Shown here: positions 3,088 through 60,177 of the stretch, in pieces | Numbering within the stretch: the first letter of the stretch is position 1 | How the letters are laid out: every line of letters begins with the position of its first letter | From: a virus | Virus record (IMG/VR): IMGVR_UViG_3300045988_076381 | Direction: 5' to 3' (one strand) | Length of the DNA: 64,000 nucleotides | Program-made: the position numbers and the translations under genes | The notes under the pieces: model-generated | What the model saw: only the letters and a program-made list of their open reading frames with translations | Databases searched by the model: none | What the model was told of the DNA's origin: nothing

Positions 3088-3116
3088 AACCCCAGTAAAT
3101 CATTTTCTTGAGCCTC
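3088..3116 (-). CDS. putative major capsid protein, exon 6 of 7 (29-nt micro-exon)
   Basis: G AGG CUC AAG AAA AUG AUU UAC UGG GGU U. This is the only frame that connects exon 5 (phase 2) to exon 7 (phase 1). Confidence 0.55.
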
Positions 3117-3411
3117 CTGATCATTTTTGATCAAGAATCTTCATATTTCCATGAAGAACAGACTATATTATCACTTTTAAAAGTGTCTCCTCTTTCGAAC
3201 TTATTTAAGTTCTATGCCTATTTAATAGGACTTACTAGTCGTTGAACCTTTTTCTTTATTTAAAGAAACTTGGCTGCGGATTGTCTAATATTTAACCTTG
3301 TTACTATACCGAAGTAGTTACCTTCGCCATATAATTATTGCTAATTATATTTAGTAGTTAAATCTCTAAAGATGTTCCCGCAATTTAGGAGATTAGGATC
3401 CAAAATGATTC
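3117..3411 (-). mobile_element. group I intron E (ORF-less)
   Basis: P1 GGAUCU/GGAUCC with U3412.G3401. P AAUUGCGGGAA (3375-3385) and Q AAUCCGCAGC (3273-3282) covary relative to the other five introns. R at 3236-3247, S at 3160-3168. Ends at G3117. Confidence 0.75.
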
Positions 3412-3472
3412 AGATCCTGCAACTGGTGTGCTAGCGGTTCCTCCTGAGATACCGTCGATCCCGCCTCAAAGG
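3412..3472 (-). CDS. putative major capsid protein, exon 5 of 7 (61 nt)
   Basis: Only one of three frames is open: (S)FEAGSTVSQEEPLAHQLQD(L). Flanked by terminal G3473 and the P1 of intron E. Confidence 0.6.
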
Positions 3473-4809: not shown

Positions 4810-5328
4810 ATGCAGCGGCGCAAGCGGATCTATTTACGCCAATTACATCAGTTTTAATCATATCACAGCCCTTGAACGTCCAAGATTCAATAGCTGGTTT
4901 TCCGTTAGCTAAGTCCGGAGTTAAGTCAAGAATAAATCCAAATGCTTGATCAGGATATTCTATATTTAAAGCTTTATCCGGCATAAAAGTAATCGTATTA
5001 CCCTGATATTCATAGCTAACAAAAGTATTACCTACTTTAACACCATCAACCGTTTCACCTACTTTCTTCTTCATACCAGAAGATTTACTATACATCAAAG
5101 TAGCAGTAGGAGTCCACCTTCCAATTTCATCCATTAAGTTATCACCAACCTGATTCCAAAGTAAAGAGTTACAGATTAATACGTAATCATTACCAGTTAA
5201 ATTCTTTGCCTTAGAGGTTAAGAAACTTAATGCTTCTTTGAAGTGTGAAGTAAGTAATTGATCGAAAGAGATTAAGTATGCATATCTTTCAATTTGAGGA
5301 ATTATCATTTGTGTTAGCTTTATGTTAC
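4810..5328 (-). CDS. putative major capsid protein, exon 4 of 7
   Basis: Track ORF 4808..5308 extended 5' to the splice acceptor. Ends at T4810 (phase 1), which is required by the only open frame of exon 5. Confidence 0.7.
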
Positions 5329-5514
5329 CATAAAGATCAGACTATATCTTAATCTTATATATTTAATTATTAAGATCCCCTCCATTTCGAGAAATTTTTC
5401 TCTACTCCATATTGGATAGTCGTTGAACGTTTCTTATAAAAGACTTCGCTGCTGATTGTCTTTATATTTAAAGATGTTCCAGCAATTAGAAGGGTGTTTC
5501 AGTATTTATCACTA
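5329..5514 (-). mobile_element. group I intron C (ORF-less, only about 186 nt)
   Basis: P1 UUUAUU/GAUAAA with U5515.G5510. P at 5477-5487, Q at 5448-5457, R at 5417-5428, S at 5339-5348. P7 GACUAU/AUAGUC. Extra hairpins between P7 and P3' (IA hallmark). Ends at G5329. Confidence 0.7.
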
Positions 5515-5542
5515 AATAAAGCGGCAAATTTCTTACCGTCGC
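5515..5542 (-). CDS. putative major capsid protein, exon 3 of 7 (28-nt micro-exon)
   Basis: GCG ACG GUA AGA AAU UUG CCG CUU UAU U between terminal G5543 and the P1 of intron C. Least certain exon. Confidence 0.5.
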
Positions 5543-5849
5543 CTATATACACTATTTATACTTTATATCACTATAAAGATTAGACTATATCATCAACTTA
5601 TCTTGTAACAATTATTTTTATTTAATTATTTAAGTTGTTCCCTGCTTCCATATATAAATATGTACGTCCGAAGACTAGTCGTTGAACTTTCATTAAATAT
5701 GATATAAATATATACAATATTTAATGCTTAGCTGCTGATTGCCTTTAAGTAGCAGATTAAAGATATTCCAGCAATTCAAGGAATTTAATTTATCATACTG
5801 TTTCCAGTATGCGACCCATGTTTAACATAGACGTTTGTTAAAATTTCCC
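5543..5849 (-). mobile_element. group I intron B (ORF-less)
   Basis: P1 GACCU/GGGUC with U5850.G5817. P2 CAUACUG-GAAA-CAGUAUG. P at 5766-5776, Q at 5731-5740, R at 5676-5687, S at 5582-5591. Ends at G5543. Confidence 0.75.
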
Positions 5850-6431
5850 AGGTCTCTGCGTTTGCGAATCAATTATAGTCGGTTTTCCGTTCTTATCCAC
5901 ATTACTACGTGCCCAAAGATCATGTTTAGCTTTAACTTCCAAGAAATTCTCAATCAAGGTCTTTTCCATTGAAGTCATAGTAAACAATTTCTCACTTCCC
6001 TTAGTTTCTGTATCACTAATTTTCAAGAATACATCTTCATTAGCTAAATAGGCTTGAGATGCATCAATATCATTTCTATGTAAGGTTAAGTAGTTACGAT
6101 GAACCTCCATATTAGACTGATATTTAGTCGTTCCAAAGTCGTGATAATCAAACGGATGAGCATTTGATAAGAAGTGAGTAGTCATACCAGGTTGACACGC
6201 AGAAGTATCAAGATACGACATATAATCAGTATCGATTAATCGAACAGTGTATTCATAATATTTATTACTTCTCCAAATTGGACGAGCAGTAACATAACAC
6301 TGTTGATGTGATTTATCTATCACGAAAATATCATGTTTATCGTAGTATTTTTCTTTAAACAACATCCGAATTTCAGTTCCTCCAACACCATCGCCTTCTG
6401 GAACAGCAACAAACGGAATACGTTTAATGAA
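5850..6431 (-). CDS. putative major capsid protein, exon 2 of 7
   Basis: Track ORF 5838..6365 extended upstream in frame (FIKRIPFVAVPEGDGVGGTEIR-MLFKEK...) to the acceptor. 582 nt = 194 codons. Confidence 0.7.
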
Positions 6432-7701
6432 CCTATTCTATTTAAAGAACTTAGACTATATCATTTACTTATTAGTATGATATTTAAAGATATAATCTTT
6501 ATAATATCTATCCCCCATCTGGATATTCTTTAATTTATTTGATGGGATATTGTATTTTTCTCTTACTTCTTTTATAGTATTTAAAGTCTCTATATAATTC
6601 CCAAATTTATCATACACATCAATTATCATTCCATTAGAATAACATTTTTGTGGAACTTTAGATACTTCTGTAGTAGATATGTAATAATCCTTATACCATC
6701 CCTCGTTATAAGATAATATATTCTGAATTTTAGCCCATGAATGAAGATTTATAACCTTCATTACTTCTTTCCCTTTAAATCTTCCTATATAATTTCCTTC
6801 TTTATCATATACATAATAAATAAGATTCTTACAACTTATCCTAGCCTTCGGAATAAATTCATCTACTAACTTCTTAGATATATAATATTGATTCTGTACT
6901 AGAGACTGATTTTTAATAGCTTTACTTATATCTAATATTCCTATATATTCAGCACATTCCTTTTCTGATTGAAACTCATTTAAGAGCTTCCCTTTTTTAG
7001 AATATAAATATACAGAAATAGGTGGATTAGATTTCTTACAATATTTAATAACATCTATCTCTGGTTCTAATGCCCAATAAGAATTAAGAAATTCACATTT
7101 CTTATCTATAGCATATTGAAATTTTTTAGGAGATTGTCCGTAAAAATCAAATACTTCTAAAGAATATTCCCATTTCTTTTGTAACTCTCCAGATGTATTA
7201 AATTGATAAATTGTTTTATATAAATCTGTATTTAAATAATTATAAGTATGATCCGCTTTTAAATACTCAGTATTTATTAACTCAGATTCTTTATTATACG
7301 CCTCTTCTAGAGTATCATAAATATATAAAGTAGTTCTCTCAAATGCTTTTGTTCCATACTTTTTAACAGCATATTGAAATGGAGTTTTTGGGTACATATA
7401 AGTACTTGGTTGATCTATATAAACTCCACACCCTAAATATCCATCAAAAGTATTAGGATCATTTGTCTGATGCACTCCAATATAAATTTTATTTAACTCT
7501 CCAACTTTAGATTTTAAATTTTTAGTAAGATATACAATATATTTCATAAGTAATTCAGTTTTTTAATCTTATTTAAATAATAAGATTTACAGGTTTCCCC
7601 TAGTCGTTGAACACTGTCTTCATCAAGACCATGCTGCTGATTATCTCTAGTAGCAGTAGAGAGTTCCCAGCAATTTAAAGAATTTATTGTGAACCTCATT
7701 G
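6432..7701 (-). mobile_element. group I intron A carrying a GIY-YIG gene
   Basis: P1 GUGAAU/GUUCAC with U7702.G7694. P at 7664-7675, Q at 7633-7642, R at 7601-7612, ORF 6465..7547, S at 6453-6462. Ends at G6432. Confidence 0.8.
6465..7547 (-). CDS. GIY-YIG homing endonuclease (intron-encoded)
   Basis: IVYLTKNLKSKVGELNKIYIGVHQT...GYLGCG...EAYNKESELI plus repeated C-terminal DNA-binding modules. Paralog of 3527..4606. Confidence 0.8.
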   Translation of the reverse strand: MKYIVYLTKNLKSKVGELNKIYIGVHQTNDPNTFDGYLGCGVYIDQPSTYMYPKTPFQYAVKKYGTKAFERTTLYIYDTLEEAYNKESELINTEYLKADHTYNYLNTDLYKTIYQFNTSGELQKKWEYSLEVFDFYGQSPKKFQYAIDKKCEFLNSYWALEPEIDVIKYCKKSNPPISVYLYSKKGKLLNEFQSEKECAEYIGILDISKAIKNQSLVQNQYYISKKLVDEFIPKARISCKNLIYYVYDKEGNYIGRFKGKEVMKVINLHSWAKIQNILSYNEGWYKDYYISTTEVSKVPQKCYSNGMIIDVYDKFGNYIETLNTIKEVREKYNIPSNKLKNIQMGDRYYKDYIFKYHTNK

Positions 7702-26762: not shown

Positions 26763-27562
26763 TATTTTCTACAATTGCAAGAATTAAATCCAGAGGAGTA
26801 TTTAAGATAGTCATTATTACAAAATCCCCCACAAACCTGAATTTCTTCTATAATTCTCTCTGCTTCGTAATAACTACATTTATCTATTAATCTATGTATT
26901 AATTCTAAAGCTATAAATACCATATTTCTATCTCTAAATACCTGAGAAATATTATTATCATTTTTTATATTACATCTAGTATACAATTTATTATAATAGA
27001 TATATTTTAATTTATTCTCATAACAATATTCTAAATTCCCTAAAAGAAATGTCTCTTCTTCAATCCCTATTATATTAGAGTTAGATTGATTACTATATAA
27101 ATCCATTATAGATACTTTCTTTTCAGTATAACTTCCGGATATAATAGTTATTTCATAGATCTCTACTTCTCCATTTGAAAGTTCTTTCGCGGAATAGAAT
27201 ATTTCCCCTTCCATATTTAAACTAGATGGAGATACTCCATGAACCCATTCGTAATTAGGTAATGCTAAATGATCTATTATATGCCATCCATCTATTTTAG
27301 TAGAATAATTTAATTTATAATCAGTATATTCTTGATCTGAATGACATACATAATAAAAATCAGATACTTTAGGATCTTCAATAGTATTTAAAGTAATCAA
27401 ATCAATAAATACAATATCTTTTGTTCTTAAATAATTAGAAGATATCTGTGATACTTCTGGATAGATACTACTAGTACTTATACCAGTAGTATCCTTCAAT
27501 GTAAATCCAGATATTCCATATTCAGTTAATGAAATGCTTAAATTTAATGAAATATTTTTCAT
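26762..27562 (-). CDS. hypothetical virion-module protein
   Basis: 266-aa ORF with start/stop overlaps to both neighbours. Confidence 0.55.
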   Translation of the reverse strand: MKNISLNLSISLTEYGISGFTLKDTTGISTSSIYPEVSQISSNYLRTKDIVFIDLITLNTIEDPKVSDFYYVCHSDQEYTDYKLNYSTKIDGWHIIDHLALPNYEWVHGVSPSSLNMEGEIFYSAKELSNGEVEIYEITIISGSYTEKKVSIMDLYSNQSNSNIIGIEEETFLLGNLEYCYENKLKYIYYNKLYTRCNIKNDNNISQVFRDRNMVFIALELIHRLIDKCSYYEAERIIEEIQVCGGFCNNDYLKYSSGFNSCNCRK

Positions 27563-29796
27563 TTTCCAAAATTTACTTCGTTATTTCTAGGATTGTTATC
27601 AAATAATTGTGCCCATTCAATATCAGCTTTCTTTTCTTCAATCTTATTTCTCTCTTTATCATTTTCATCTTTAGATTTAGCAGTAAACCATTTAATAGAG
27701 GAATCTTGTTCTTTTTGTTTTAGATTTTCTACTTCTTTAATAGATTTTTGCAATTCCTCTTGAAGTTGCTGTATCTGTTGTTGAGCTTCTTTAAGAGCTT
27801 GATCATATTGCTGTATCTGCTGTTGAGCTTGTTGTATTTGATTATTCTCCTCTTTTTGACGTTTAATTGCGTCTAATGTTATTTGTTTATATTCTGTGAT
27901 ACTCTTACATCCAATAGCTTGTACTAATACATCAGCTGTTAATTGTCCCGATTTAATTAACTCAAGATTATATGCTTTTATAGTTTCTAAGTCTTGTAAA
28001 GCGGATTGAGTATCAGCAATATTTATATCAAAGTCTGTTACTGTATAATGTTCTGGAAGTGCTGTGAAAATAGCTTTTTGTTTCTCTCCAAGAATTATAG
28101 TTCCTTGAAATCCATCTTTATATACTACTTTAGCTATATTTAAACTATCTAAGAATAATTCTCTTAAAGCTAATGCCATGTTAGAGAAGTATATTTTTGT
28201 GACAATTAGTGATTGATTAATTCCGGTTCTAACATTAGTAACAGCATCTCTAGTTTCAACTCCTCCAATAGCTTCTCTAAATGCTCCTGTTATATTAGAT
28301 GCGAGTTGTTCTATTTTTTCTATAGCTAAATCTAGAGCTTGCATTGATTGGTAGGATAAACTCATATCATATGTATTAAATACAGCATTTGGCATAGATT
28401 GTCCAGCCTCACTTTGGGAAGTATCTAATGCTGCGAATCCTTGTTTTACATACGCCATGAATTTAAGTAATCTGTTTGTTTCATCTTCCTCGTCTAAGAA
28501 TGTGGGGATTTTAGAGAAATCTACTGCAATACCTTTTGTCCCACTTACTGCAATGGCATTATTTCGAAGGAAAAATAGTATATTATACATATCTTGCAAA
28601 TCTGCTGTAGCTAATACTAAACTAAACGGGATATTTTGTCTCGTTGTCATAAATAACCCATTAACAGATAATGTACATTCCTTAGGATTATCCATAGATC
28701 TAACTACATTTAAATCTACATCCCTAACAATATAAATATCACTAGCAATTTTAACTACAGAGTATCTATGCATTACACCATCTTTTCCTGTCTCTATATA
28801 TTCTACCTCATATACAGTAATTAATCTATTATTATATCCATACATTCCAGTATTCCCATCCCAAACAGGAGTTACCTCTAGTCCCCCTAATATTCCGGTA
28901 GCAAATTCCGAATCCTCTGTAGTAGCAGCATTTATTGGTCCGGTAGATCTTATTATATACTTCTGATTATCAGTATAATATGCCTTCTCTAATTCATCTC
29001 TTAACTTAGTTTTATCAGCTTCTGTTAATTCTGAATTATATTTAGATAAGATCTGATCTACTGTCATGTAATATCTACAAACAGCTCTAGGAGATTTATT
29101 TAAATAATAACTATTAGGATTTTTCTCCACAAAAGTATTAATAGGATTTAATCCTTCTATATCCACATTATTCCCACTTCTAGAAGGTTGTGTTTTAAAA
29201 TAAAGTGTTCCGGAGATTAATAAATCCGTCATTAATAATCTAGCTTTTATATCTAAATCAATACTTTTAGATTGAGATAAATATGTTATAATATTCTGTG
29301 CTGCTATTTCATATTCAGAAATAAAATTTTTATCTATATCTTCCTTTAATAATTGTAGAGACTTTTCAGTTAGAGGATCTTTTGTTATAGGAGTATTCTG
29401 ATCTCCGAATTTAGAGAGAATAGTATTATATAAATTACTCATATATAATTCCCTAACTCCATCTAATACTTTAAGCTGTCTCTCTCTATTTATTAAAGAT
29501 AATGTCTTTTGATCTTTACATGTAATTTGCATATTTAATGGAGCATCTAGAAACTTCCCAACTAAATAATCTATGTGCTTTTTTATAAGTGGTATAAATT
29601 GTATTTGTGTCGGAGTTCCTATTCCATAATTTTCTTCGAAATGCTTATATTGATCTAAATCCATCTTCCCGTGATAGTAGTTATAAGCTTTTCTTATCGC
29701 TACTTTATCATACACGAGATCAGAAATAGCTTGATTAGCCTTCTGAATTTGATAGTCTTTTGATCCTCGTTTGTACTCGACGCTCATCCAAATCAA
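27559..29796 (-). CDS. putative portal protein
   Basis: 745 aa, about 260 nt downstream of the large terminase (a 108-aa ORF, 29735..30061, spans the gap). Gln-rich coiled coil near the C-terminus. Based on size and position, no motif-level proof. The real start is possibly Met4. Confidence 0.55.
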   Translation of the reverse strand: MIWMSVEYKRGSKDYQIQKANQAISDLVYDKVAIRKAYNYYHGKMDLDQYKHFEENYGIGTPTQIQFIPLIKKHIDYLVGKFLDAPLNMQITCKDQKTLSLINRERQLKVLDGVRELYMSNLYNTILSKFGDQNTPITKDPLTEKSLQLLKEDIDKNFISEYEIAAQNIITYLSQSKSIDLDIKARLLMTDLLISGTLYFKTQPSRSGNNVDIEGLNPINTFVEKNPNSYYLNKSPRAVCRYYMTVDQILSKYNSELTEADKTKLRDELEKAYYTDNQKYIIRSTGPINAATTEDSEFATGILGGLEVTPVWDGNTGMYGYNNRLITVYEVEYIETGKDGVMHRYSVVKIASDIYIVRDVDLNVVRSMDNPKECTLSVNGLFMTTRQNIPFSLVLATADLQDMYNILFFLRNNAIAVSGTKGIAVDFSKIPTFLDEEDETNRLLKFMAYVKQGFAALDTSQSEAGQSMPNAVFNTYDMSLSYQSMQALDLAIEKIEQLASNITGAFREAIGGVETRDAVTNVRTGINQSLIVTKIYFSNMALALRELFLDSLNIAKVVYKDGFQGTIILGEKQKAIFTALPEHYTVTDFDINIADTQSALQDLETIKAYNLELIKSGQLTADVLVQAIGCKSITEYKQITLDAIKRQKEENNQIQQAQQQIQQYDQALKEAQQQIQQLQEELQKSIKEVENLKQKEQDSSIKWFTAKSKDENDKERNKIEEKKADIEWAQLFDNNPRNNEVNFGK

Positions 29797-30061
29797 TTTT
29801 TTGTCCTACGAAGTATCTAGTTAGATTTAAACCTCGAAGGTGTAGTTCTTTCTTTATTTTTTCTAAAAACTTCTCTTTACTATCACATTGGATATATATA
29901 CATAAAGGAGTTAGGTAATCTTCTGTTATATACATTTTAAGTATATAACCATCCTCTGTTTTAATTATATCCATTGATTTATTATATATCGCCCCATATA
30001 ATTCTAATATGTATTCTTTAATCATACATATTAAATATTCTTTTTCAGTCGTATTAATCAT
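29735..30061 (-). CDS. hypothetical protein
   Basis: 108-aa ORF between terminase and portal. Confidence 0.5.
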   Translation of the reverse strand: MINTTEKEYLICMIKEYILELYGAIYNKSMDIIKTEDGYILKMYITEDYLTPLCIYIQCDSKEKFLEKIKKELHLRGLNLTRYFVGQKIDLDERRVQTRIKRLSNSEG

Positions 30062-30234
30062 ATACTGAATCTGTTCTAGATATTAATACTTTTAAATCCT
30101 CAGGAATTCCATCATCTGTAGGTATTTTTCCAAAATGTTTTACTCCATTAGAATCATAATAATATCCTATTTTACTTATTTTAATTTTTTTCTTCTTCTC
30201 ACCAATTCCTCCTAGTAATCTTAGTTCTTGATCG
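30054..30234 (-). CDS. terL: terminase large subunit, exon 4 of 4 (assignment tentative)
   Basis: A 60-codon open frame that is in frame with exon 3 only if the intron ends at G30235 (AU+C=Ile: ...AAMGI-DQELRLL...). Confidence 0.5.
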
Positions 30235-30515
30235 CCCATTTCGCACCATATTTGTTATCTATAAGGCTTTTTATCCTTATATTCTTATAATTTCTTATAA
30301 GCTCAGCATATATTTTCATCTTATATTTAAATAAGATGTTCCGCACTCGTGGAAGGATTATTACTCTCATTAACGTTCACCTTCTATGCGTTACAATGGC
30401 TAACGATGTTTTAGCTTATCTCGGTATTAGCATGGTATTTAAACTTTAACTTTCACCGATTTTGCGGAATTATTTTATTACCTTAAATTTCTTTAAGGAG
30501 GGACATGCAAGGTCT
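30235..30515 (-). mobile_element. group I-like intron T3 (ORF-less, second family)
   Basis: P1 GGGAU/GUCCC with U30516.G30504. P2 CCUUAAA-GAAA-UUUAAGG. P3 UUCCGCA/UGCGGAA. J3/4 AAA. P4 UCGGUG/UACCGA. 3' end ...GAAAUGGG. Confidence 0.65.
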
Positions 30516-31534
30516 ATCCCCATTGCAGCGATAATATCAAACTTCCTCTTATTCTCATAAGAATAATCCTTTAACTCATTTAACATCTCTATACAATCAA
30601 TTCTATCCCAGAATTCATTAACATAATCCTGAATAAGTTCAAGATAATACTCAATAACTCTTTTTGAGGGATAAATACCGTACATACTAGAATTTAAAGA
30701 TTTCTTCTTAGATACATCTGTACTATTCGGAGATTGTAATTTTTTCATTAATAAATATTGTTTTCCTTTATCCTGAAAATAACTTACAATAGCTGTTCTG
30801 GAACTTTCTAATACTGCTTTTGCTCCATACCATTCTAATAATAGAATTGTCTGATTATAAGCTGTTCTAATATTCTCAGGCCTATCTTTATATATAGCTA
30901 CATATTTATTTCCATCAAGTCCATAATTCCTCTTCTTTATAACTAAACAGAAATCAGATGTATCCTTCTGCCCAGTAGACTGATCAATACCTTGGTCAAT
31001 AGAGTCAATTCCAGCAACATAAAGATTAGGTATTAAATCACCATTCTCATCTCTTATAGGCTCTTCAAATATTTTAACTTTACCATTAGGAGAAGAGATG
31101 AATTTAATATTATCTCTACCTCCATCTGTGGCTAAAGCAAGTATACCAATTTTTGGTTTTATTCCGTAGCCATGAACTTCTATATCTGTTAATCTTTGTG
31201 CGATTAAATTCTGATTGAACATATTATCTCCTTTCCTAGATAAAGCTTCTTGGAAAGTCCAACAATACTCTGCACAATGTACCATATAAGCAAAGGGATC
31301 ATTTGAGTATCTTTGACGTTCAATCATTAAAAATTCTTCTGCTTTCTTACGTATTGTAACTCCTCGATTATCTATTATCCCAGGTTGCATTACTATGGCA
31401 GTAGATGGGATAAAGTATGCTGTATAGACTGTACGATTATCTGAGGAGTGATTATGTTTATATGGTAAGATTCCGAAGGAAATTGGATCAAGAAACATCC
31501 GTTCTAGTCCTTCTAAAGATGGACCACTATCTCC
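30516..31534 (-). CDS. terL: terminase large subunit, exon 3 of 4
   Basis: Nuclease-domain part (LYVAGIDSIDQG..., ...KFDIIAAMG). The track start (GTG at 31537) is really the intron 3' end. Confidence 0.75.
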
Positions 31535-31818
31535 CACTTTGTTATCTCTAGAGCTTTTTATCTCTAGATTCTTACACTTCTTAATTTATGTAAGGTCAGC
31601 ATATATTTTCATCTGTTCTAGATGTCGAACACTCGTGGTAGGATTATATTTATTCACCTACTATGCGTTACAGTATCAATTAACCTTTCGCAATTTAATT
31701 GATTACCTCGGGATTGGCATCACAGCTTTCCCCGATTTTGCTCGATTTTCTCAATGAAGATTCCTCTTCAAGCCGGCAAAATTTTATATTTTCTTTCTAA
31801 ATAAATACTGGAATATTT
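31535..31818 (-). mobile_element. group I-like intron T2 (ORF-less, second family)
   Basis: P1 CCGGU/GCCGG with U31819.G31777 and a 41-nt L1. P2 UGAAGA-GGAA-UCUUCA. P3 UCGAGCA/UGUUCGA. P4 UCGGGG/UCCCGA. Ends ...AAAGUG. Confidence 0.65.
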
Positions 31819-32229
31819 ACCGGTACCATAACCAATCTTAAATCCAACTCTTTGTCCAATTACCTTAATAAGAGCATCTCCTTGAATCCATTTCTTAATC
31901 AACTCGGGGTCAGAACCACATTCTTCGTATATAAGTAATTCACATCGATCACCTCTGACTTTAGAAGGTTTATCCGCTACAATACCTGTTATCATAGATT
32001 TAAATCCGGATTCATTACCTTCTCTATCCTTCTTTGATGCTCTTTTTTGGACCATAGTATTTATCGCTTGGCGTAAATGCTTAAATCCATTCTCTGTTTC
32101 TGTATTTAAATAATCCAATTGTACCCAACATTTCTCTAATGTCTTAGCTAAGAAATCACTAGTTGCTGCGGTATATATAGATTGAGACTCTGGTTCACAT
32201 GTATACATTGCAACTCCATTATTTGCTCC
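31819..32229 (-). CDS. terL: terminase large subunit, exon 2 of 4
   Basis: 137 codons containing a Walker B-like CELLIYEECGS. Ends ...KIGYGTG at the splice-site U. Confidence 0.75.
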
Positions 32230-32536
32230 CATTTCACTGAAACCGCTTCTGTTATCATAAAGACTTTTTATTCTTTATTTCCTGGAGTTTCCTCCTTACT
32301 ATATTTAGATTTAATCATCTAAAGGATCGGCGCACGTTTTTATCTCATATTTAAATAAGATATTCCGAACTCATGGGAAGATTATTACTCTCTTAACGTT
32401 CACTTCCTGCGCTCTACGATAATTAATTGATATTTAATCATCTCGGCATTAACATAGTTTATATTTAAACCTTAGTCTTTACCGATATTTCGGAATTTAT
32501 TACCCTTAAATTACTTTAAGGGAGGCCCGGTATTTT
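32230..32536 (-). mobile_element. group I-like intron T1 (ORF-less, second family)
   Basis: P1 GGCUU/GGGCC with U32537.G32528. P2 CCCUUAAA-GUAA-UUUAAGGG. P3 UUCCGAA/UUCGGAA. P4 UCGGUA/UGCCGA. Ends ...GAAAUG. Confidence 0.65.
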
Positions 32537-33346
32537 AAGCCCACGTCCCTTTAAAACAAGAGCATCTTTATTTGTTTTCCTACATAATTCCAGATAATGA
32601 AAATATTCATATTGTTTTGCTAGAAACATTGGAAAAGATGTAGCACGTTTACCTTTTTTTGTTCCTCCTGTATCTAATATAATCGGAGTTTGCATTCGAT
32701 AGAAATTTAAATAAAAATAATTCCATCCAGTTATAGTATACCCATGTGAAGTATAGCCCTCAGTACATCTTCTGAATCTCTCATCCCAGAAATTATTATA
32801 TGCAGGACCTTTATAAGCATACATCTCATACTTCCCTGTAGCTTCTTTAGTCATTGCATCTTCTCTGAACCAATCAGGATTAAAATCTAATCCTTGTGTT
32901 TCTGTTATAGGTCTATACCCAGTAAGTTCATACGAAAGTTCGGGATCAAAGAAATCTACTGGATCTCCTATTTTAACATCCCAATCAGTAAATGCTTCTG
33001 ATTGTTCTAGAGCTTTAGTCTTTAATTTACTATATAAATAATCATCTATTTCAACTTCATCTCTAGCAATTTTATAGTTAGATAAATCTTTAGATATATA
33101 AGAATTATCATATAATTTCTGCTCTTCCGATTCCTCTTCTTTTAACTTTTCGGGGGTATCATAGGTACTAAGATCTCTTACTATTGTTTCAGTATCTAAA
33201 GAATTTAAAAGTTCCTTTGTAGTAGGTTTCTTTTTTACAACTCTTTTAGGTTTTTCTGGTTCGGAATCTACTTTTTTAGGAATATCTTTCTTTGCCTTTA
33301 CTTTAGATACATTACCTTTTGCTCCATATGTAATTTTCCTAGCCAT
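32537..33346 (-). CDS. terL: terminase large subunit, exon 1 of 4
   Basis: 270 codons ending ...ALVLKGRGL. Splicing to exon 2 gives KGRGLGANNG (Walker A-like region). Confidence 0.75.
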
Positions 33347-33348
33347 AT

Positions 33349-33930
33349 TTAATCTCTATATCCAGGTTCATAATCCCCTTTTATTTTAGATTGTTTTTCT
33401 ATATCTCTCTTATATCTATCCTCTGCTGCCCTAACTTCATCCAGAAGAGGGCCTATTCCTTTAGCTTCTGCGATTACGTCTTTAGCTTTATATCTTAATT
33501 GTCCTGTTTCATCATTTACATCACTTAAATCAACTAAGTCATTAAAATATATCGTTAATTTATCTATTACAGTATATACGGATTTAAGTAATTTATATGT
33601 TCTAAAAGAATCTCTTAATTCCTCATATTTCCTACAAGCTGCTCTAAATAAAGGATCAGAAAATTCTTCATCTGTTATAGCTGCTTGCCTTCTTGCTTCT
33701 TTATTCCTATTTTGTTCTGGGAAATCATATATAGGAGATTGCCAATCTAACATTAAATAAATATATTTAAATTCCCTAAACGCTCGTAATTTAAACCTTC
33801 CAGCAGGATCTTCTGGACATTTATTTCTCTCAGACTCCATTAAATCATTAAATTCTTTAAGTAATAGAATCTCCTCCTTATTTAATTCTAAGGATCCGGT
33901 TTGATTATTATAATTAAAAAACTTTACCAT
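33349..33930 (-). CDS. possible terminase small subunit
   Basis: 193-aa ORF ending 3 nt before the terL start. Based on position only. Confidence 0.35.
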   Translation of the reverse strand: MVKFFNYNNQTGSLELNKEEILLLKEFNDLMESERNKCPEDPAGRFKLRAFREFKYIYLMLDWQSPIYDFPEQNRNKEARRQAAITDEEFSDPLFRAACRKYEELRDSFRTYKLLKSVYTVIDKLTIYFNDLVDLSDVNDETGQLRYKAKDVIAEAKGIGPLLDEVRAAEDRYKRDIEKQSKIKGDYEPGYRD

Positions 33931-45628: not shown

Positions 45629-45701
45629 GGTCCCATAGCGTAAAGGTTAACGCAAAACACTCATAATGTTGAGATTCTAGGTTCAAGTCCTAGTGGGACC
45701 A
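45629..45701 (+). tRNA. tRNA with CAT anticodon (Met or lysidine-Ile)
   Basis: Hand-folded cloverleaf: acceptor GGTCCCA/TGGGACC, D stem GCGT/ACGC, anticodon loop CTCATAA, T arm CTAGG-TTCAAGT-CCTAG. Confidence 0.85.
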
Positions 45702-45824
45702 CGATATTGATTTTCAGGATTTCTGAGGTTTAGAATTTCTGGATTAATGTTTTTTGTAATTTTTTTCATGATCAGTGTTTAACATTAGCAACATTTAATG
45801 AGATGTGATATCTCCTTCCTTATT

Positions 45825-45849
45825 AAGGAGAGTTAATACTCTCCTTTTT
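45825..45849 (+). terminator. hairpin terminator candidate
   Basis: AAGGAGAGT-TAAT-ACTCTCCTT followed by TTTT. Confidence 0.5.
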
Positions 45850-45965
45850 AAATTTGTTTATTATGAGAAAGATAGATATAAAATACATAATGACAATAAT
45901 AGGAATATTTATATTTCTATTATTATTATCTTCATTAGAATCAATCATTAATTCTATTTAAATAA

Positions 45966-46039
45966 GAGCGAATATCCAAATTGGTTAAGGGAATAGTCTG
46001 CAAAACTATATTGTGAGAGTTCGAATCTCTCTTCGCTCT
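45966..46039 (+). tRNA. tRNA-Cys (GCA)
   Basis: Acceptor GAGCGAA/TTCGCTC, anticodon stem ATAGT/ACTAT with loop CTGCAAA, T arm GAGAG-TTCGAAT-CTCTC. Confidence 0.85.
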
Positions 46040-46156
46040 CATTAAATATTATATTTAAAAGGTTATATTCGGAAATATATAAGAATGATATCTTTTAAAT
46101 ACTTTAAAATTATATTAATTAAAATAAATAAAAATAATCTTTTAAATATAATAATT

Positions 46157-46426
46157 ATGAAGATCGTGATTAATAGATCCGGAATTGGATTAAATCTATC
46201 TCTACCAGCTATAGAGTATTTAATTAAATATAAAGTAATTAAGTCTCCATTAGATATGAGAAATATTAATAGGAGTAGCCCAAGATTGGTAAGATGTATC
46301 GAAGTATTAGGAGATAACGCATCTTTAGATATGTTAGAAACGATAACAGTTAGAGATGATTTTAAATATAAAATCTCTGAAATCCAAATAGGTAACATCC
46401 ATAGAGAAATTATCCTCATGGAGTAA
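46157..46426 (+). CDS. hypothetical protein
   Basis: ATG at 46157 (MKIVINRSGIGLNLS...) inside track ORF 46085..46426. Preferred over the low-complexity antisense ORF 46063..46419. Confidence 0.45.
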   Translation: MKIVINRSGIGLNLSLPAIEYLIKYKVIKSPLDMRNINRSSPRLVRCIEVLGDNASLDMLETITVRDDFKYKISEIQIGNIHREIILME

Positions 46427-46594
46427 GATATTTACATATGTAAATCTAATTAGTGTACAATAATTAGATATTCCAAGCTCTACTGGTTACAGAGTATAAA
46501 TAAACCTAGATTTTTAGATTTCCAAATTGACCTAAAATCTAATATCTTAGGATTAGATATAAAATAAGCGTGGAATACTTATTGTTAAATCAAC

Positions 46595-46664
46595 TTCTTA
46601 GTAGTTTAACTGGTGAAAATGTCATATACAGTAGGAAATATTAGTTCGAATCCAATCTAAGAAG
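46595..46664 (+). ncRNA. tRNA-like element with unpaired anticodon arm (pseudo-tRNA?)
   Basis: Acceptor TTCTTAG/CTAAGAA, U8-A9, D arm GTTT-AACTGGTGA-AAAT, T arm ATTAG-TTCGAAT-CCAAT. No 5-bp anticodon stem can be drawn in 46621-46639. Confidence 0.35.
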
Positions 46665-46710
46665 TGATAAAGAAACTCATATAATTCATATCTTAATATT
46701 AACCCGAAAA

Positions 46711-46796
46711 AAGGGCAACAGTAGGGTTGGGGTGGGTTCAGTGCCCTTGAGATAGTATCAAAATCAGCAATAATGCAGATGAGCTGTAACCACCCC
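46711..46796 (+). ncRNA. structured spacer RNA candidate (pseudoknot-like)
   Basis: AAGGGCA(46711-17)/TGCCCTT(46742-48). The loop sequence GGGGTGG(46729-35) is complementary to CCACCCC(46790-96), which is followed by TTTT. Confidence 0.3.
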
Positions 46797-46824
46797 TTTT
46801 ATTAATAATTTTGTTTATATTCTA

Positions 46825-46896
46825 TGCGAGATAGTGTAAAGGTAACATCCTAGGCTCATAACCTAGAGGATGGTGGTTCGAATCCATCTCTCGCTA
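46825..46896 (+). tRNA. tRNA with CAT anticodon, U1:U72 mismatch
   Basis: Acceptor TGCGAGA/TCTCGCT (first pair mismatched), D stem GTGT/ACAT, anticodon stem CTAGG/CCTAG with loop CTCATAA, T arm GGTGG-TTCGAAT-CCATC. Confidence 0.8.
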
Positions 46897-47132
46897 CTAT
46901 ATAATAGACTTCAGATATTTAACGCGGAATATAGAAGTTTGTTATATTTTATAATTATGCATGCTAATTATAAATCCCAACTCATCCTATGTCTAAGGGG
47001 AGTATAAATTAAAAGCAGATCCATCTTTTTGAGTTTGTATTGGTAATGAGAATAACTCTATAACTTAGAAATGTTATAAAACTTTCTTGAATTTAAGATA
47101 TAAGGTTTGGGAACTTACATCATTAAATTAAC

Positions 47133-47207
47133 TCCTCAGTAGCTCAGTTGGCTAGAGCAGCGGACCGTTAATCCGTAGGATCGTAGGTTCAAGTCCTACC
47201 TGAGGAG
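47133..47207 (+). tRNA. tRNA-Asn (GTT) with C at position 33
   Basis: Acceptor TCCTCAG/CTGAGGA, D arm GCTC-AGTTGGCTA-GAGC, anticodon stem GCGGA/TCCGT with loop CCGTTAA, T arm GTAGG-TTCAAGT-CCTAC. Closely parallels the E. coli tRNA-Asn layout. Confidence 0.8.
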
Positions 47208-47651
47208 CATAATAAAGAGTGTAGTACTAGTGTAGGACTCAACGTAACTTATAGGTTTTGTATTGTACATATAAATTTAGTCCTATTGGGTGTCGTATAA
47301 CCCAACTTAGCTATCGAGTACGGTTAATGATAGCATTTTTATCGAACTTTCATAAAAATAATTATATGAGAAACAAGCATTATTTCCTAATAGATTAATC
47401 TGATAAACCGTATATTGGAGTTGATACACTTATAATTGTCTAATGCAGCTTCGTATTATAAGAAGCAAGTCAATATAAGAAATCAGTTCAGAATAATGTA
47501 TTGTATTCGACGTGGGATTTAAAATTGTATTTATGTGATAGATGTATAGAGAGAAGATTAAGACGGAAAATATCTGGAGAAGATCTAATTCCAAATGATC
47601 CTGTTAATAATTTATATATACAAATATGTCTAGATTTATAATTTATTAATT

Positions 47652-48035
47652 ATGAAAAAGAGAGAACTCCCAAAAGAAGTAAAGAGATGGATTAAATTTT
47701 TTATAAAAACTAATGCTTATTATAATTTTGATTGGGCATTTATGTTAGATGTAGAAAAAGAGAAATTAACTCAATGTATTAAATTTTTTACTGATAACGG
47801 ATGTCATATTAATAATTCCAGAATAATTTCGAAGATGCAATTGGCTGTGAGATTATTAGATATTGCTAGGGATGAGGATTTAGATTTTAAAGGTTATGTA
47901 AATACTAAGAATATAAATAGATTTATTTCTATAGATAAATATGATATTGATATTCTCCCAACTCTTCGAACTGAAAAAGCGTGGTATTTATATAATAAAT
48001 TAAGATATTATTATATGAAAGAATGGTGGGATTAA
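47652..48035 (+). CDS. hypothetical protein
   Basis: 127-aa ORF embedded in the tRNA cluster. Confidence 0.55.
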   Translation: MKKRELPKEVKRWIKFFIKTNAYYNFDWAFMLDVEKEKLTQCIKFFTDNGCHINNSRIISKMQLAVRLLDIARDEDLDFKGYVNTKNINRFISIDKYDIDILPTLRTEKAWYLYNKLRYYYMKEWWD

Positions 48036-48044
48036 ATATATTAT

Positions 48045-48130
48045 GCTAGAATGGTGAAATTGACAGACACTCAGGACTTAAAATTCTGTGGATAGTAATA
48101 TCCGTGTGGGTTTGAATCCCACTTCTAGTA
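48045..48130 (+). tRNA. tRNA-Leu (TAA), long variable arm
   Basis: Acceptor GCTAGAA/TTCTAGT, anticodon stem CAGGA/TTCTG with loop CTTAAAA, variable arm TGGATAGTAATATCCG, T arm GTGGG-TTTGAAT-CCCAC. Confidence 0.85.
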
Positions 48131-48422
48131 CTATCTAGATGTAGCAAAATCAGTGAAGTTAAATACAGAAATACGCTTCGTAAGAGAACCTGTAGTCCTT
48201 AAAGGATAGTGGTGACACTGAGCCAATCTATTTATATAGAAGGTGAGATTCCAAAAACTACAATATTTATAGGGAATCAATCATATAAGAAATTATATGA
48301 AATCTCTGATAATCTATAGTGCCTTATAGAAAAACAGGGGATGAAGTTAAGGCACAAACTTCATTGGGATATATTCCCGGCGAAAGAGATTTTATATATC
48401 TCTGGATCTGATTATTTAATAG

Positions 48423-48485
48423 TACTTTGTGCATCGGATGCACTCCGAGGGATGTGAGGTTAAGGTTCGACTCCTTACAAAGTGC
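48423..48485 (+). ncRNA. truncated tRNA-like element (acceptor + T arm)
   Basis: TACTTTG/CAAAGTG acceptor and TAAGG-TTCGACT-CCTTA T arm. Only about 29 nt lie where the D and anticodon arms should be. Confidence 0.3.
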
Positions 48486-48515
48486 CTAAGTAGTAATTAT
48501 TTAAATATTCATATT

Positions 48516-49415
48516 ATGGAAATTAGAAATGAGAATAAAGTATTTTTTGGAGAGAGTGGTATTACTTCTACTTCTGCTACATATTTATGTAACATTGCTA
48601 GGGAGTTATTAAAAGATATAGAATCATCTTTAAATAATATCTCCTTCATTACTGAGGAAGTAACACTCTTTGGATCTGAGAATAAGATTAGAACTAAAGA
48701 AGGATATAATTTATCCGAACTATCTGATCTAGATTCTAAACTTACTAAAGCTGCACAACTAAAAGCATTTATAGCATGGATGAGTGAAGGAATCAAAGCA
48801 AAAGATGTGGAAAGTGAGAAACTTAGAGAATATACTTTATCTGATTTTATAAAGGATTTCCCTGAATATGTAGTACAGAGGTCTAAAGATTCTACACTAG
48901 ATCCTAATTATGGACTTGGGAAATTAGATGTTTCAGAACGGGTTAAATATCTCTTCTCAGAAGCTTTAACTTCTTCAATTGGGAAATATATTCATAATAA
49001 TGGTGCTTTAAGAAAAGCTTATAGCGAGCTTTTAAATATTGCACATAACAAAGTGAATATAACCACAGAAGCAAAAGATTCTATAGTTGTAGTCACTAAT
49101 AAAATCCCAAGTGTGGATACTAAAAAAGTAGAAAAGATTATGCTTAAATATCAAGATTTACGAAGAGAGAATGAGAAGGTTCTGAACTCTTTGAAATCTA
49201 AGATAAAAAGTTATGATCATGAATATCAAATATATCTTACTCTTGAAGATAAAGCAGCTTCAGAGTCGTATAATGAAAAGATGGAAGTAGTACGTTCAAA
49301 ATATAATGAATATGTATTAAATAAGAGATCGGAAATTGAGAAACTTAAAATCATCATCCCAGATGGTTTAAGGAGTATTTATAACGATCTTCATACCATC
49401 TCAAAAGAAAAATAA
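48516..49415 (+). CDS. hypothetical protein
   Basis: Start moved to ATG 48516 (MEIRNENKVFF...) because the track's upstream extension overlaps the tRNA-like element. Confidence 0.6.
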   Translation: MEIRNENKVFFGESGITSTSATYLCNIARELLKDIESSLNNISFITEEVTLFGSENKIRTKEGYNLSELSDLDSKLTKAAQLKAFIAWMSEGIKAKDVESEKLREYTLSDFIKDFPEYVVQRSKDSTLDPNYGLGKLDVSERVKYLFSEALTSSIGKYIHNNGALRKAYSELLNIAHNKVNITTEAKDSIVVVTNKIPSVDTKKVEKIMLKYQDLRRENEKVLNSLKSKIKSYDHEYQIYLTLEDKAASESYNEKMEVVRSKYNEYVLNKRSEIEKLKIIIPDGLRSIYNDLHTISKEK

Positions 49416-49693
49416 ATAAAGTAGGTAATACTTAAATCCATTTGGATGGAGGTATTTTTATATGTATAGATTATATATATAATAAAATTTAGCTAAATAA
49501 TATAGACGATAATATAAACTATTAATGCGAAAGAATCCTCAAAAGATGTTTTTATTTAAATAAATATACTTATTTAAATATAAACTATACTCCTCTTTCT
49601 GTCTTAACCTTAGTCCTTGAGAGGATTCTTGCCCTTGACATATTCTTTGGCTGTATTTATATAATCTATACATAACTATTTTTAATAAACATT

Positions 49694-49764
49694 TGTCCTA
49701 TAGTATAATGGTAATACATCTGGTTTTGGTCCAGAGAATTGAGGTTCAAATCCTCGTAGGACAA
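49694..49764 (+). tRNA. tRNA-Gln (TTG)
   Basis: Acceptor TGTCCTA/TAGGACA, D arm GTAT-AATGGTA-ATAC, anticodon stem TCTGG/CCAGA with loop TTTTGGT, T arm TGAGG-TTCAAAT-CCTCG. Confidence 0.85.
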
Positions 49765-50147
49765 CAATTCTATAATGGGAATTTTTAGATTGATTATTTC
49801 TTATAGAAAAGTCTGGACAAATTTTGTTTGGACTTTTCTTTTCATTCAATAGATATTGAAAAATTCGAAAACATATGATAAATTCTCCAAATAGTTATTT
49901 AACTGAATATTATATAAATAAAGTTTTGTTTATATAACTCTTTAAAAGACTGTAAAATATTAAAATTTCAAAACTAAACGGATTCTATGGCTTATAAGTA
50001 GAATACCCCTTTCTGTCTATTTTATCAAGCCTAGATACTCTAAAACTATTTTTAAGTCAACTTCCAGATATGGTATGTTTGGACTATTATAGATTTTTGG
50101 AGTTCTAGGCTTTTTTATTTTCATTTTTCAAACTCGGATTTTCAAGT

Positions 50148-58598: not shown

Positions 58599-59008
58599 AT
58601 GAATAGAAAAGAAAGAACTATCTCCGAAAATATGGAGAAATTAATGATAGACCAAATCTCAAGAGAATTATATAATCATAATGTATATAGAACATATGCG
58701 AATTACTATTATGTAAGAGGATTGTTTAAATTACATCTTTATTATGAGATGAGATCTAACGAGGAATATAATCATCATCAATGGATTGTTGATAGATTAT
58801 ATAGAGCCGGAGTTGATTTTAATTATCCAGAAGTACCAGCTATTAAATCTAATCATGTTATATTAAAGCCAGAAGATAGTTTTCAGAAAGTAGTAGATTT
58901 AGAGATTGAAACTACTATGTATATAAATAAAATGATAGAAACTGCGAAAGAGGAGAAGGATTGGCAGACGGAGGGATGGTTAAAGAGGACGTTAAATGAA
59001 GAGCAGAT
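58599..59008 (+). CDS. ferritin-like protein, exon 1 of 2
   Basis: ELYNHNVYRTYANYY, NEEYNHHQWIVDRL and DLEIETTMYINKMIE follow the ferritin helix A-C ligand pattern. Exon ends ...LNEEQ + AU at the P1 splice-site U59008. Confidence 0.7.
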
Positions 59009-60177
59009 AAACTTTTGTCTGAAAGTATGGTAACATACAGGTGAATAGATCAAAATCGATGAAGTCTAATTTAGATAATATCGAGGTAAGTATGAATTTA
59101 AAGGATTCATACCACTGTAACGCGTAGGTGTTGAAACTATTAATTATTTATAAATTATATTTTTGCAGAAGAGATAATTGTTTTTATCGTGGAAGAATAT
59201 TAACTTTGTATTTATTACATTTTAATATTTAAATTCTTATGGATAAAAACAGAAAACTAGAATTTGAGGGAAAGATATTTCCTACGAATAATTGTGGCGA
59301 GCTAAAAATCATCGAATATAATGGAGCAACTAATGTAGTGGTGGAGTTTATTACTACTAAAACTATACATTCTACCACTATGAATAACATCAAGAAAGGA
59401 TCAGTATCCGATCCTATGTATCCAACAGTATATGGAATAGGATATATGGGTATAGGAGAGTATAAAAGTAGGACTGGGACTAGTCCTCAAACAACTTGCT
59501 ATAAACGATGGAAAGAAATTCTTAATCGATGCTATAATCCTAAATGTTCTGCTTATAAATTTTATGGAGGAAATGGAGCAATTATATGTGAAGAATGGAA
59601 AAATTTCCAAAATTTTGCATCTTGGTGGTATTCTAACTTTCCAAATTGGGAAGGAATTAAAATTGCTATAGATAAAGATTTATTATGTAAGGGAAATAAG
59701 GAATATTGTCCTGAATACTGCTGCTTTTTACCTCAAGAAATAAACGAAGCTCTTACTTTAAGAAAAAAGGAAAGAGGGGATTATCCAGTTGGAGTACGGT
59801 TAAAAGAAGGAAAAATTATTGCTCAAATTAATTACATGGGAAATAAAAAACATTTAGGAACATTTTCCACTGTTGAAGATGCTTTTGCAAAATATAAAAT
59901 AGAAAAGGAAAAGTGTATGAAAGAATATGCTGATAAATACAAAAATATACTTTCGGAGAGAGTGTATCAAGCATTATATAACTACACTATAAATATAGAT
60001 GATTAATAGAATAAAATATACCCAAGAGTGATCTACTCCTACAGGTAATGCTGAGGATGAAAATGTACGCTGAACCGTCTGATGATTAAATCAGAATATC
60101 TTTATTTACATCTTCAATAAAGTAAGGAGGAGACTCCCGGAAGTAAGAGATAAAAAACTCTTACGATAACAAAATTG
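59009..60177 (+). mobile_element. group I-like intron (terminase-intron family) carrying an AP2-domain gene
   Basis: P1 CAGAU/GUCUG with U59008.G59017. P2 GUAUG-GUAA-CAUAC. P3 UAGAUCA/UGAUCUA. J3/4 AAA. P4 UCGAUG/UAUCGA. 3' end GAUAACAAAAUUG like intron T2. Ends at G60177. Confidence 0.65.
59239..60006 (+). CDS. AP2-domain homing-endonuclease-like protein (intron-encoded)
   Basis: VGVRLKEGKIIAQINYMGNKKHLGTFSTVEDAFAKYKIEKEK is an AP2/ERF-type DNA-binding domain, common in phage HNH/AP2 homing endonucleases. I did not identify a catalytic motif. Confidence 0.6.
   Translation: MDKNRKLEFEGKIFPTNNCGELKIIEYNGATNVVVEFITTKTIHSTTMNNIKKGSVSDPMYPTVYGIGYMGIGEYKSRTGTSPQTTCYKRWKEILNRCYNPKCSAYKFYGGNGAIICEEWKNFQNFASWWYSNFPNWEGIKIAIDKDLLCKGNKEYCPEYCCFLPQEINEALTLRKKERGDYPVGVRLKEGKIIAQINYMGNKKHLGTFSTVEDAFAKYKIEKEKCMKEYADKYKNILSERVYQALYNYTINIDD

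Follow-up and report, generated by a model that had tools for sequence, protein, structure and literature searches.

How does a phage come to carry its large terminase in four pieces? The question is raised by the large terminase gene (terL) in IMG/VR virus record IMGVR_UViG_3300045988_076381, of which we analyzed a stretch of 64,000 nucleotides (nt), hereafter the window. The host phage is crAss-like, and three paralogous blocks of non-coding sequence divide its terL, on the minus strand (33346..30054), into four parts. An open reading frame (ORF) list shows the gene as four co-directional minus-strand ORFs (33346..32516, 32232..31768, 31537..30470, and 30239..30054). A sequence-only reading had taken the blocks for ORF-less introns separating four exons, a division that PHROG 6681, the alignment of homologs, and intron-less alleles now uphold. 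Our comparative analyses make it very probable that the blocks, designated I1, I2, and I3, are self-splicing introns of group I, apparently of the IA-like kind found in phages; they have a single additional hairpin between P7 and P3' and belong to one sequence family.

The joined product of the four ORFs is a large terminase according to the PHROGs search (PHROG 6681, E 2.8e-60); a Pfam search with the spliced protein matched no family, and the identification came from PHROGs. In the protein collection, 677 TerL homologs were retrieved at E ≤ 1e-10; the best of them are uninterrupted (P0001, 821 aa; P0002, 832 aa), with others being fragments or intein-bearing. Co-linearity with such proteins, combined with the intron-less alleles described below, fixed the exons and introns as follows (^ marks a splice site):

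32538..33346, minus strand: terL exon 1, 809 nt, ending ...AAG GGA CGU GGG CU^ (ORF list, homolog alignment, intron-less alleles)
32537..32246, minus strand: intron I1, 292 nt, ORF-less group I intron (197.6 bits with covariance model R1, described below)
31819..32245, minus strand: terL exon 2, 427 nt, beginning CGG UUU CAG UGA AAU GGG and ending ...UAU GGU ACC GGU^
31818..31535, minus strand: intron I2, 284 nt, ORF-less group I intron (R1, 87.5 bits)
30516..31534, minus strand: terL exon 3, 1019 nt, from GGA GAU AGU GGU (GDSG) to ...GCA AUG GGG AU^
30515..30247, minus strand: intron I3, 269 nt, ORF-less group I intron (R1, 199.8 bits)
30054..30246, minus strand: terL exon 4, 193 nt including the stop codon, beginning G UGC GAA AUG GGC GAU

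The spliced ORF spans 2448 nt and encodes 815 aa, in place of the 805 or 750 aa predicted earlier, and aligns without gaps across all three junctions with nine uninterrupted homologs (42–82% identity). Exon 1 CU and the start of exon 2 together read L-G-F-S-E-M-G, and exon 3 AU and the start of exon 4 read M-C-E-M-G-D; the uninterrupted homologs read KGRGL-GFSEM-GANNG at junction 1 and AAMGM-CEMG-DQELRL at junction 3, and exon 4 remains co-linear with P0001 and P0002 up to the C-terminus.

This geometry revises the sequence-only reading at two of its three 3' splice sites. That reading had regarded the apparent starts ATG 32232, GTG 31537, and ATG 30239 as conserved intron ends of the form A(A/G)UG^GG, with blocks of 281–307 nt in place of the 292, 284, and 269 nt found here. 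The intron 2 boundary lies where it was placed, and the restored YGTG^GDSG is exact, whereas the homologs and intron-less alleles put the 3' splice sites of I1 and I3 16 and 12 nt upstream, respectively. The proposed KGRGL-GANNG junction lacks the GFSEM that the homologs carry in between, and with the earlier joins the protein falls short of every homolog by 5 residues at junction 1 and 4 at junction 3. Because the missing residues are encoded directly upstream of the earlier acceptors, the supposed AAAUG^GG intron end is exon sequence, namely the codons E-M-G that follow both sites. The 3' exons of I1 and I3 (32245-32225 and 30246-30231, minus strand) share the motif G(U/C)GAAAUGGG, whose E-M-G codons stand 3–12 nt past the splice site; it is this shared motif that misled the placement of the intron ends.

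Other candidate sites were rejected. The acceptors G30235 and G30237, and AAAUG^GG at 32230, would delete conserved residues or shift the frame, and they are contradicted by the intron-less alleles. At site 1, the protein data are equally compatible with splicing after the second U (intron 32536..32245), but the intron would then have C as its last nucleotide, whereas with the first U it ends in G and P1 and P10 are adjacent. All three insertion sites fall in the most conserved segments of TerL: I1 in K-x-R-G-[LV]-G-F-S-E, I2 in the invariant G-T-G-G-D, and I3 in K-R-K-F-D-I-[IV]-A-A...G-M-C-E. Judging from their position, the I1 segment would be the P-loop, that of I2 would be an ATPase motif, and that of I3 would belong to the nuclease domain at the C-terminus.

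Natural variation at the locus provides a direct view of the gene with and without the blocks. In IMG/VR, terL alleles whose exons are 96.8–99.4% identical to those of the window carry the introns in several combinations:

I1 only: L001
I2 only: L006, L010, L014
I1 and I3: L003, L004
I1 and I2: L005, L007
I2 and I3: L008, L009, L011, L012, L013, L016, L020
all three introns: L017

I1 is missing in L006, L008, and L010-L014, I2 in L001, L003, and L004, and I3 in L007, L010, and L014, and the insertions and absences lie exactly at coding sequence (CDS) nt 809/810, 1236/1237, and 2255/2256, which are the revised junctions. Alleles without blocks are continuous ORFs across the sites. This observation bears on a gene that is truly split, in which the four ORFs would be translated separately from the internal ATG, GTG, and ATG into a multi-subunit terminase without splicing, the blocks being spacers or remnants of mobile elements. 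An in-frame start codon does stand near the 5' end of every downstream piece, and both gene callers and annotators of GenBank records handle such cases as separate CDSs, as with the two “terminase large subunit” CDSs of phage CHPC1042. Against it, besides the continuous alleles, the breaks fall inside invariant motifs (RGL^GFSE, GTG^GDS, and GM^CEMG), initiation at 32232 and 30239 would lose 5 and 4 conserved residues encoded just upstream, and the putative spacers hold a covarying ribozyme fold with guides that pair with exactly these exon ends. We consider separate translation of four pieces very improbable and return to the blocks as introns.

The three blocks can be aligned with one another, as claimed earlier, with a mean column identity of 69%; BLASTN matches I1 to I3 at 76.6% over 192 nt and I2 to I3 at 71.7% over 152 nt. 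The P1 helices, the P2 hairpins with their GUAA, GGAA, and GAAA loops, P3, J3/4, P4, the 9-bp P6, and P8 are all present at the sequences that the earlier reading had given. The elements were located as follows (IGS, internal guide sequence):

32531-32523, minus strand: I1, IGS (P10 ACCG, then P1 GGCCU); P2 at 32522-32503 (GUAA loop)
32495-32489/32369-32363, minus strand: I1, P3; P4 at 32485-32480/32448-32443; P6 at 32442-32418
32414-32408/32334-32329, minus strand: I1, P7; P7.1 at 32407-32376; P8 at 32361-32342
32323-32257, minus strand: I1, P9, P9.1, and P9.2; tail GAUAACAGAAG, terminal G at 32246
31780-31773, minus strand: I2, IGS, with a long P1 loop; P2 at 31770-31755 (GGAA loop)
31745-31739/31631-31625, minus strand: I2, P3; P4 at 31735-31730/31713-31708; P6 at 31707-31672
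31668-31662/31603-31598, minus strand: I2, P7; P7.1 at 31661-31638; P8 at 31623-31611
31594-31547, minus strand: I2, P9 and P9.2; tail GAUAACAAAGUG
30508-30500, minus strand: I3, IGS (P10 GCAU, then P1 GUCCC); P2 at 30498-30481 (GAAA loop)
30469-30463/30345-30339, minus strand: I3, P3; P4 at 30459-30454/30426-30421; P6 at 30420-30395
30391-30385/30310-30305, minus strand: I3, P7; P7.1 at 30384-30352; P8 at 30337-30318
30302-30260, minus strand: I3, P9 and P9.2; tail GAUAACAAAUAUG

In P1, the exon and guide strands are GGGCU/GGCCU in I1, CCGGUAAA/UUUGCCGG in I2, and GGGAU/GUCCC in I3. With the junctions fixed by alleles and protein co-linearity, every 5' exon ends in U, which forms a U.G wobble with the guide, and the last nucleotide of all three introns is G. 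Directly 5' of the P1 guide, a 4-bp P10 can be read from the sequence in I1 (CGGU/ACCG) and I3 (GUGC/GCAU). The minimum-free-energy fold of I3 alone (z = -3.3) reproduces P2-P9.2.

To put the fold on a comparative footing, we relied on a covariance model. Since full introns were aligned incorrectly by MAFFT at their 3' ends and, in I2, across the P4'-P6 region, the model, R1, was built from a core-only alignment of two I1-type and two I3-type copies with hand-assigned helices. R1 finds I2 at the score listed above even though I2 was not used in building it. We then counted pairing over an alignment of 75 family sequences obtained by searching IMG/VR loci with R1 (alignment A5) for P3, P4, P5, P6, P7.1, and P8, together with the P7 pseudoknot, which was added by hand. 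Base pairs form in 92.6% of cells, as opposed to 31–41% when the partners are slid by 1–3 columns; 42 of the 46 pairs change on both sides, and none of 500 shuffles reached the observed values. The helices thus covary, as the sequence-only reading had asserted from the three copies.

P7 lies outside R1 and therefore constitutes an independent test of the P3/P7 pseudoknot of group I introns. It pairs in 94.7% of cells; its third pair (234-470) is AU in 44 sequences and GC in 24, and after its closing pair, which is AU in 67 sequences and GC in 5, come a bulged nucleotide and then an almost invariant G-C pair. This G-C pair of the predicted guanosine-binding site is present in 67 of the 75 sequences, and the predicted layout of the site in the terL introns, A-U (G-C in I1), bulged C (or A), G-C, agrees with CAAC-GACUA/UAGUC-U of the consensus of RF00028, the Rfam group I intron model. 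The core topology P3-[P4-P5-P6]-P7-P3'-P8-P7' with its pseudoknot is consequently backed by covariation, and, with the U.G pair in P1 and the terminal G, it bears out the group I-like character proposed earlier. A single covarying hairpin, P7.1, occupies the segment between P7 and P3' (98.9% of cells pair) and carries a conserved UGAA...AUAAU loop; no second hairpin, P7.2, was found there in A5. The 3' domain is likewise conserved, with 64 of the 75 members carrying a covarying hairpin with the loop AUAAAAAG, followed by G(A/G)UAACA, 3–6 nt, and G.

These features also speak to the idea that the blocks are group II introns, inteins, or translational bypass elements like that of T4 gene 60. Inteins are worth weighing because TerL of crAss-like phages also carries them, with several homologs containing Hint or LAGLIDADG intein domains (PMC7886860). 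In all three blocks, however, in-frame stops occur within a few codons of the 5' junction, which excludes inteins, and, for group II introns, 269–292 nt is too short and no group II family of Rfam was matched. The bypass gap of T4 gene 60 is 50 nt long. Blocks of about 280 nt are far above it, and bypass would leave the P3/P7 pseudoknot, the U.G pair, and the terminal G unexplained. We give this group of explanations next to no credence, and group I introns remain the preferred reading.

The sequence-only reading had further held that the core of the capsid introns is missing from those of terL. It is present in altered form: UGUAACGCAUA ... AAAAUAUAUGC corresponds to the canonical R/S pair GUUCAACGACUA ... 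AAGAUAUAGUC, with two P7 base pairs exchanged in a compensatory manner, such that P7 reads GCRUA/UAYGC instead of GACUA/UAGUC while the usual closing pair, bulge, and G-C are kept.

Several points weigh against assigning the blocks to group I. Over 29900-33400, which covers terL, RF00028 stays silent at E ≤ 10; the P10 of I2 is weak and lies away from the guide; pairing in the nested helices was scored on sequences aligned with R1 and is hence biased towards that structure; and the motif used for collecting family members fixes the 5' strand of P7, which restricts the variation there and biases the sample. The checks independent of R1 are P7, the 3' domain, and the thermodynamic fold. As for RF00028, the silence extends to the family at large: Rfam at gathering scores reported no intron family in terL across the whole window, RF00028 at its gathering score matched none of the family members in 20 IMG/VR loci, and it had no match at E ≤ 1 in locus L201. 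We attribute this silence in terL to the sensitivity limit of the model and not to the absence of a ribozyme. The detection limitation of RF00028 has also been discussed in a study of Bastillevirinae (PMC11878797).

The attribution draws on copies that both models recognize. In a GenBank record of the Streptococcus thermophilus phage CHPC1042 (L200, MH937494.1 531-2078), the terL intron reaches 51 bits with RF00028, whose cut-off is 50, as well as 35.6 bits with R1, and in L130:9518-9765 the scores are 35.4 bits (E 8e-7) and 59.8 bits, respectively, with both models putting the helices at identical positions. Within the window, RF00028 detects four group I introns in the capsid-gene region (2798-5838, minus strand; 66–107 bits), whose core is the canonical GUUCAACGACUA/GAUAUAGUC, which also have P7.1/P7.2 insertions, and from which the terL introns differ in sequence. 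R1 matches these capsid introns as well, more weakly (5337-5498, E 8e-5, and 3239-3387). It also gives a weak match at 4623-4792 (minus strand, 26 bits) that RF00028 does not report at its gathering score and that may represent a fifth intron of the capsid region. The distinct lineage postulated earlier accordingly holds for a sequence family that differs from the capsid introns and no further, since the matches shared by R1 and RF00028 place the terL family among the ordinary group I introns of phages, as a branch whose sequence has diverged beyond the reach of the Rfam model.

Whether the introns act on their own is a separate matter. As is standard for group I introns, each intron of the terL pre-mRNA would fold into P1-P10, an external guanosine bound in P7 would attack after the U of the P1 U.G pair, and the freed 3'-OH would then attack after the terminal G, joining the four exons into an mRNA for one 815-aa TerL. 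From the conserved elements, we infer that all three introns splice themselves out of the late terL transcript in a reaction started by guanosine. Full-length active TerL, and hence packaging, would depend on all three splicing events, and the strict dependence of virion production on splicing that the sequence-only reading envisaged is reasonable. It is also conceivable that the introns, although derived from group I, lack autonomous catalysis and require a phage or host maturase or chaperone, or special conditions, with TerL production regulated or limited by splicing. Under such a scheme, three serial splicings in one late mRNA might serve as a control point; the core deviates from the RF00028 consensus, and the window's terL copies lack ORFs, in contrast to sister copies with genes for LAGLIDADG proteins, among which maturases are found (PMC7886860). 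Conversely, the full core helices and junctions are kept under covariation in 75 members, the sequence indicates no missing element, and the related terL intron of Bacillus phage SIOphi self-splices in vitro (PMC11878797). Dependence on a protein or on special conditions is thus, in our judgment, unlikely, and self-splicing is favored.

The origin of the ORF-less copies can be followed among the alleles. Sister copies at site 1 (L005) and site 3 (L008 and L009) contain, in the P5 loop, an ORF of about 260–280 aa with two LAGLIDADG motifs, which matches Pfam PF14528 at E 1.6e-14 in L008 and E 6.2e-11 in L005, whereas L011, L013, and L016 keep only the last ~20 codons of this ORF (a remnant of ~56 nt) at site 3. 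The positions of these copies are:

L005:1952-2999: site 1 copy with the LAGLIDADG ORF
L008 and L009, 5540-6581: site 3 copies with the LAGLIDADG ORF
L011 and L016, about 5540-5865: site 3 copies with the remnant
L013:4221-4545: site 3 copy with the remnant

Nearly identical terL alleles thereby form a series of empty site, intron with endonuclease gene, intron with remnant, and ORF-less intron, to the last of which the window's three copies, none with an ORF, belong. Where occupied and empty alleles differ in their exons, the differences are concentrated at the insertion sites; in L012, 6 of the 15 lie no more than 7 nt from the empty I1 site, where the occupied allele reads CGU GGG CU^C GGU UUC and the empty one CGA GGA UUA GGA UUU. 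Sequences of empty-site alleles are AAGGGACGAGGATTAGGATTTAGTGAAATGGG and GCAATGGGAATGTGCGAAATGGGCGAT. Homing co-conversion combined with exon pairing to the intron guide sequence would give such clustering. Homing is thus reflected in endonuclease genes in sister copies, in presence or absence at fixed sites, and in differences concentrated at empty sites. Given the LAGLIDADG ORFs and remnants in sister copies, the window's terL introns derive from homing introns by deletion of the ORF and stand at the last stage of the homing cycle. No paralogs are closer to each other than I1 and I3, whose sister copies code for related LAGLIDADG proteins; the G(U/C)GAAAUGGG motif common to their 3' exons may reflect ectopic homing between similar target sites.

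The window holds a fourth member of the family, in a ferritin-like gene:

59009..60177, plus strand: fourth family member, with boundaries inferred from P1 (CAGAU/GUCUG) and the terminal G

R1 matches it in two parts (59042-59169 and 60003-60073) separated by an ORF, and BLASTN matches it to the 3' domain of I1; an nhmmer profile of the three terL introns, which retrieved only close copies, missed this member. The gene has exon 1 at 58599-59008 and exon 2 from 60178, and the Ferritin match in Pfam extends across the predicted junction. The ORF, of 255 aa (59239-60006), lies between P7 and P3' and has no Pfam match; we have only the impression that its C-terminus (HLGTFSTVEDAFAKYK) resembles an AP2/HNH-type homing endonuclease.

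Beyond the window, the family is abundant. The collecting motif, 15 bases of the P7 region (GTAACGCRTAG, 3–6 nt, TGAA), is found in at least 120 IMG/VR stretches, and R1 applied to 80 IMG/VR loci among the matches listed produced 78 matches (77 over the whole length of the model), which places family members in nearly all of those loci. On several IMG/VR contigs, two members, or a member and a canonical RF00028 intron, lie within 1–2 kb of each other, and multi-intron genes seem common for this family. The contigs are:

L132:6369-6595 and 6710-6888: multi-intron contig
L081:6606-6769 and 7333-7492: multi-intron contig
L154, L130, and L145: multi-intron contigs

BLASTN with I3 found matches in 52 GenBank phage records. 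Cultured carriers include Staphylococcus Sextaecvirus phages (PG-2021_67, 6ec-like), Clostridioides phiCD211-like phages, Bacillus phage PJN02, and, in terL, S. thermophilus Brussowvirus; the host genes in these phages are the tape measure gene, genes for hypothetical proteins, and terL, and the host phyla differ. The PG-2021_67 copy reaches 138.5 bits with R1, and RF00028 does not match it at E ≤ 1. The CHPC1042 annotation divides terL between two CDSs (531-1202 and 1491-2078), and the gap between them holds the intron, whose 3' domain is shared with I3 (BLASTN); the intron itself is not annotated in that record. At the BLASTN matches in 6ec-like and phiCD211-like phages, the records show either just ordinary CDSs or no annotated feature, and under none of the GenBank phage matches is the annotated feature an intron. 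In the literature, we found no specific prior description of the intron family in Sextaecvirus or phiCD211 phages. That the family with the GCRUA/UAYGC P7, a single P7.1, and a AUAAAAAG 3' loop followed by GAUAACA is an undescribed and unmodelled group I subgroup spreading between phages of Bacteroidota (crAss-like) and Bacillota is possible, albeit doubtful.

Downstream of terL, the adjoining gene is that of the portal (29796..27559, PHROG 6547). By tblastn against GenBank phages, TerL is placed with crAss-like phages, at identities of 42% or less, and megablast of the terL-portal region against the same phages gave no match, indicating that the phage has no close cultured relative. [quoted passage not shown] A cluster of six or seven tRNA genes lies at 45629-49765 on the plus strand (two Met, Cys, Asn, Leu-UAA, and Gln-UUG), with a weak Rfam tRNA match at 46595-46664 inside it; no suppressor anticodon was seen among these genes.

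For annotation, the consequence is that terL would be called as four ORFs when the correct product is one 815-aa TerL. Introns that are both ORF-less and invisible to RF00028 escape the two usual routes of detection, and because this family is missed by RF00028 and by endonuclease-domain surveys, the intron load in crAss-like phages, and probably in many other phages, is underestimated. The allele series illustrates the homing cycle at two sites of an essential packaging gene. Knowledge of group I introns or terminases in general is unchanged by the finding. [quoted passage not shown]

Fragmented phage core genes have precedents. Zeta-group crAss-like phages, with genomes of 145–192 kb, have up to 14 group I introns per genome, which fragment the genes for the major capsid protein (MCP), PolB, and TerL and may contain LAGLIDADG ORFs (Yutin et al. 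2021, PMC7886860). The locus described here resembles them in its fragmented core genes, its LAGLIDADG-bearing introns, and the 130–190 kb of its related contigs; in that survey, however, introns were found via endonuclease domains, leaving ORF-less copies like these three uncounted (PMC7886860). In Bacillus phages of the Bastillevirinae, terL contains group I introns, sometimes two or three per gene, which are IA-like and come with or without homing endonuclease ORFs (PMC11878797). The likeness lies in a large terminase gene interrupted by group I introns, whereas here the phage is crAss-like, infecting Bacteroidota, and the introns are three ORF-less paralogs with a GCRUA/UAYGC P7 that are invisible to RF00028. 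An intron in the terminase gene of Lactobacillus phage LL-H was reportedly described by Mikkonen and Alatossava in 1995, and Landthaler and Shub are said to have found, in 1999 (PNAS 96:7005), three small ORF-less group I introns in orf142 of Staphylococcus phage Twort. The latter case is alike in that a single phage gene holds three short, related, ORF-less introns of an apparently IA-type architecture with extra pairing between P7 and P3'; Twort, however, has a canonical GACUA/UAGUC P7 with both P7.1 and P7.2, in contrast to the single P7.1 (UGAA...AUAAU loop) and the AUAAAAAG 3' hairpin found here. Both phage terL genes with several introns and crAss-like phages of the Zeta group that are rich in introns are thus already published, and what is mildly new is that the terL introns are ORF-less and invisible to RF00028 and belong to an abundant family that crosses host phyla.

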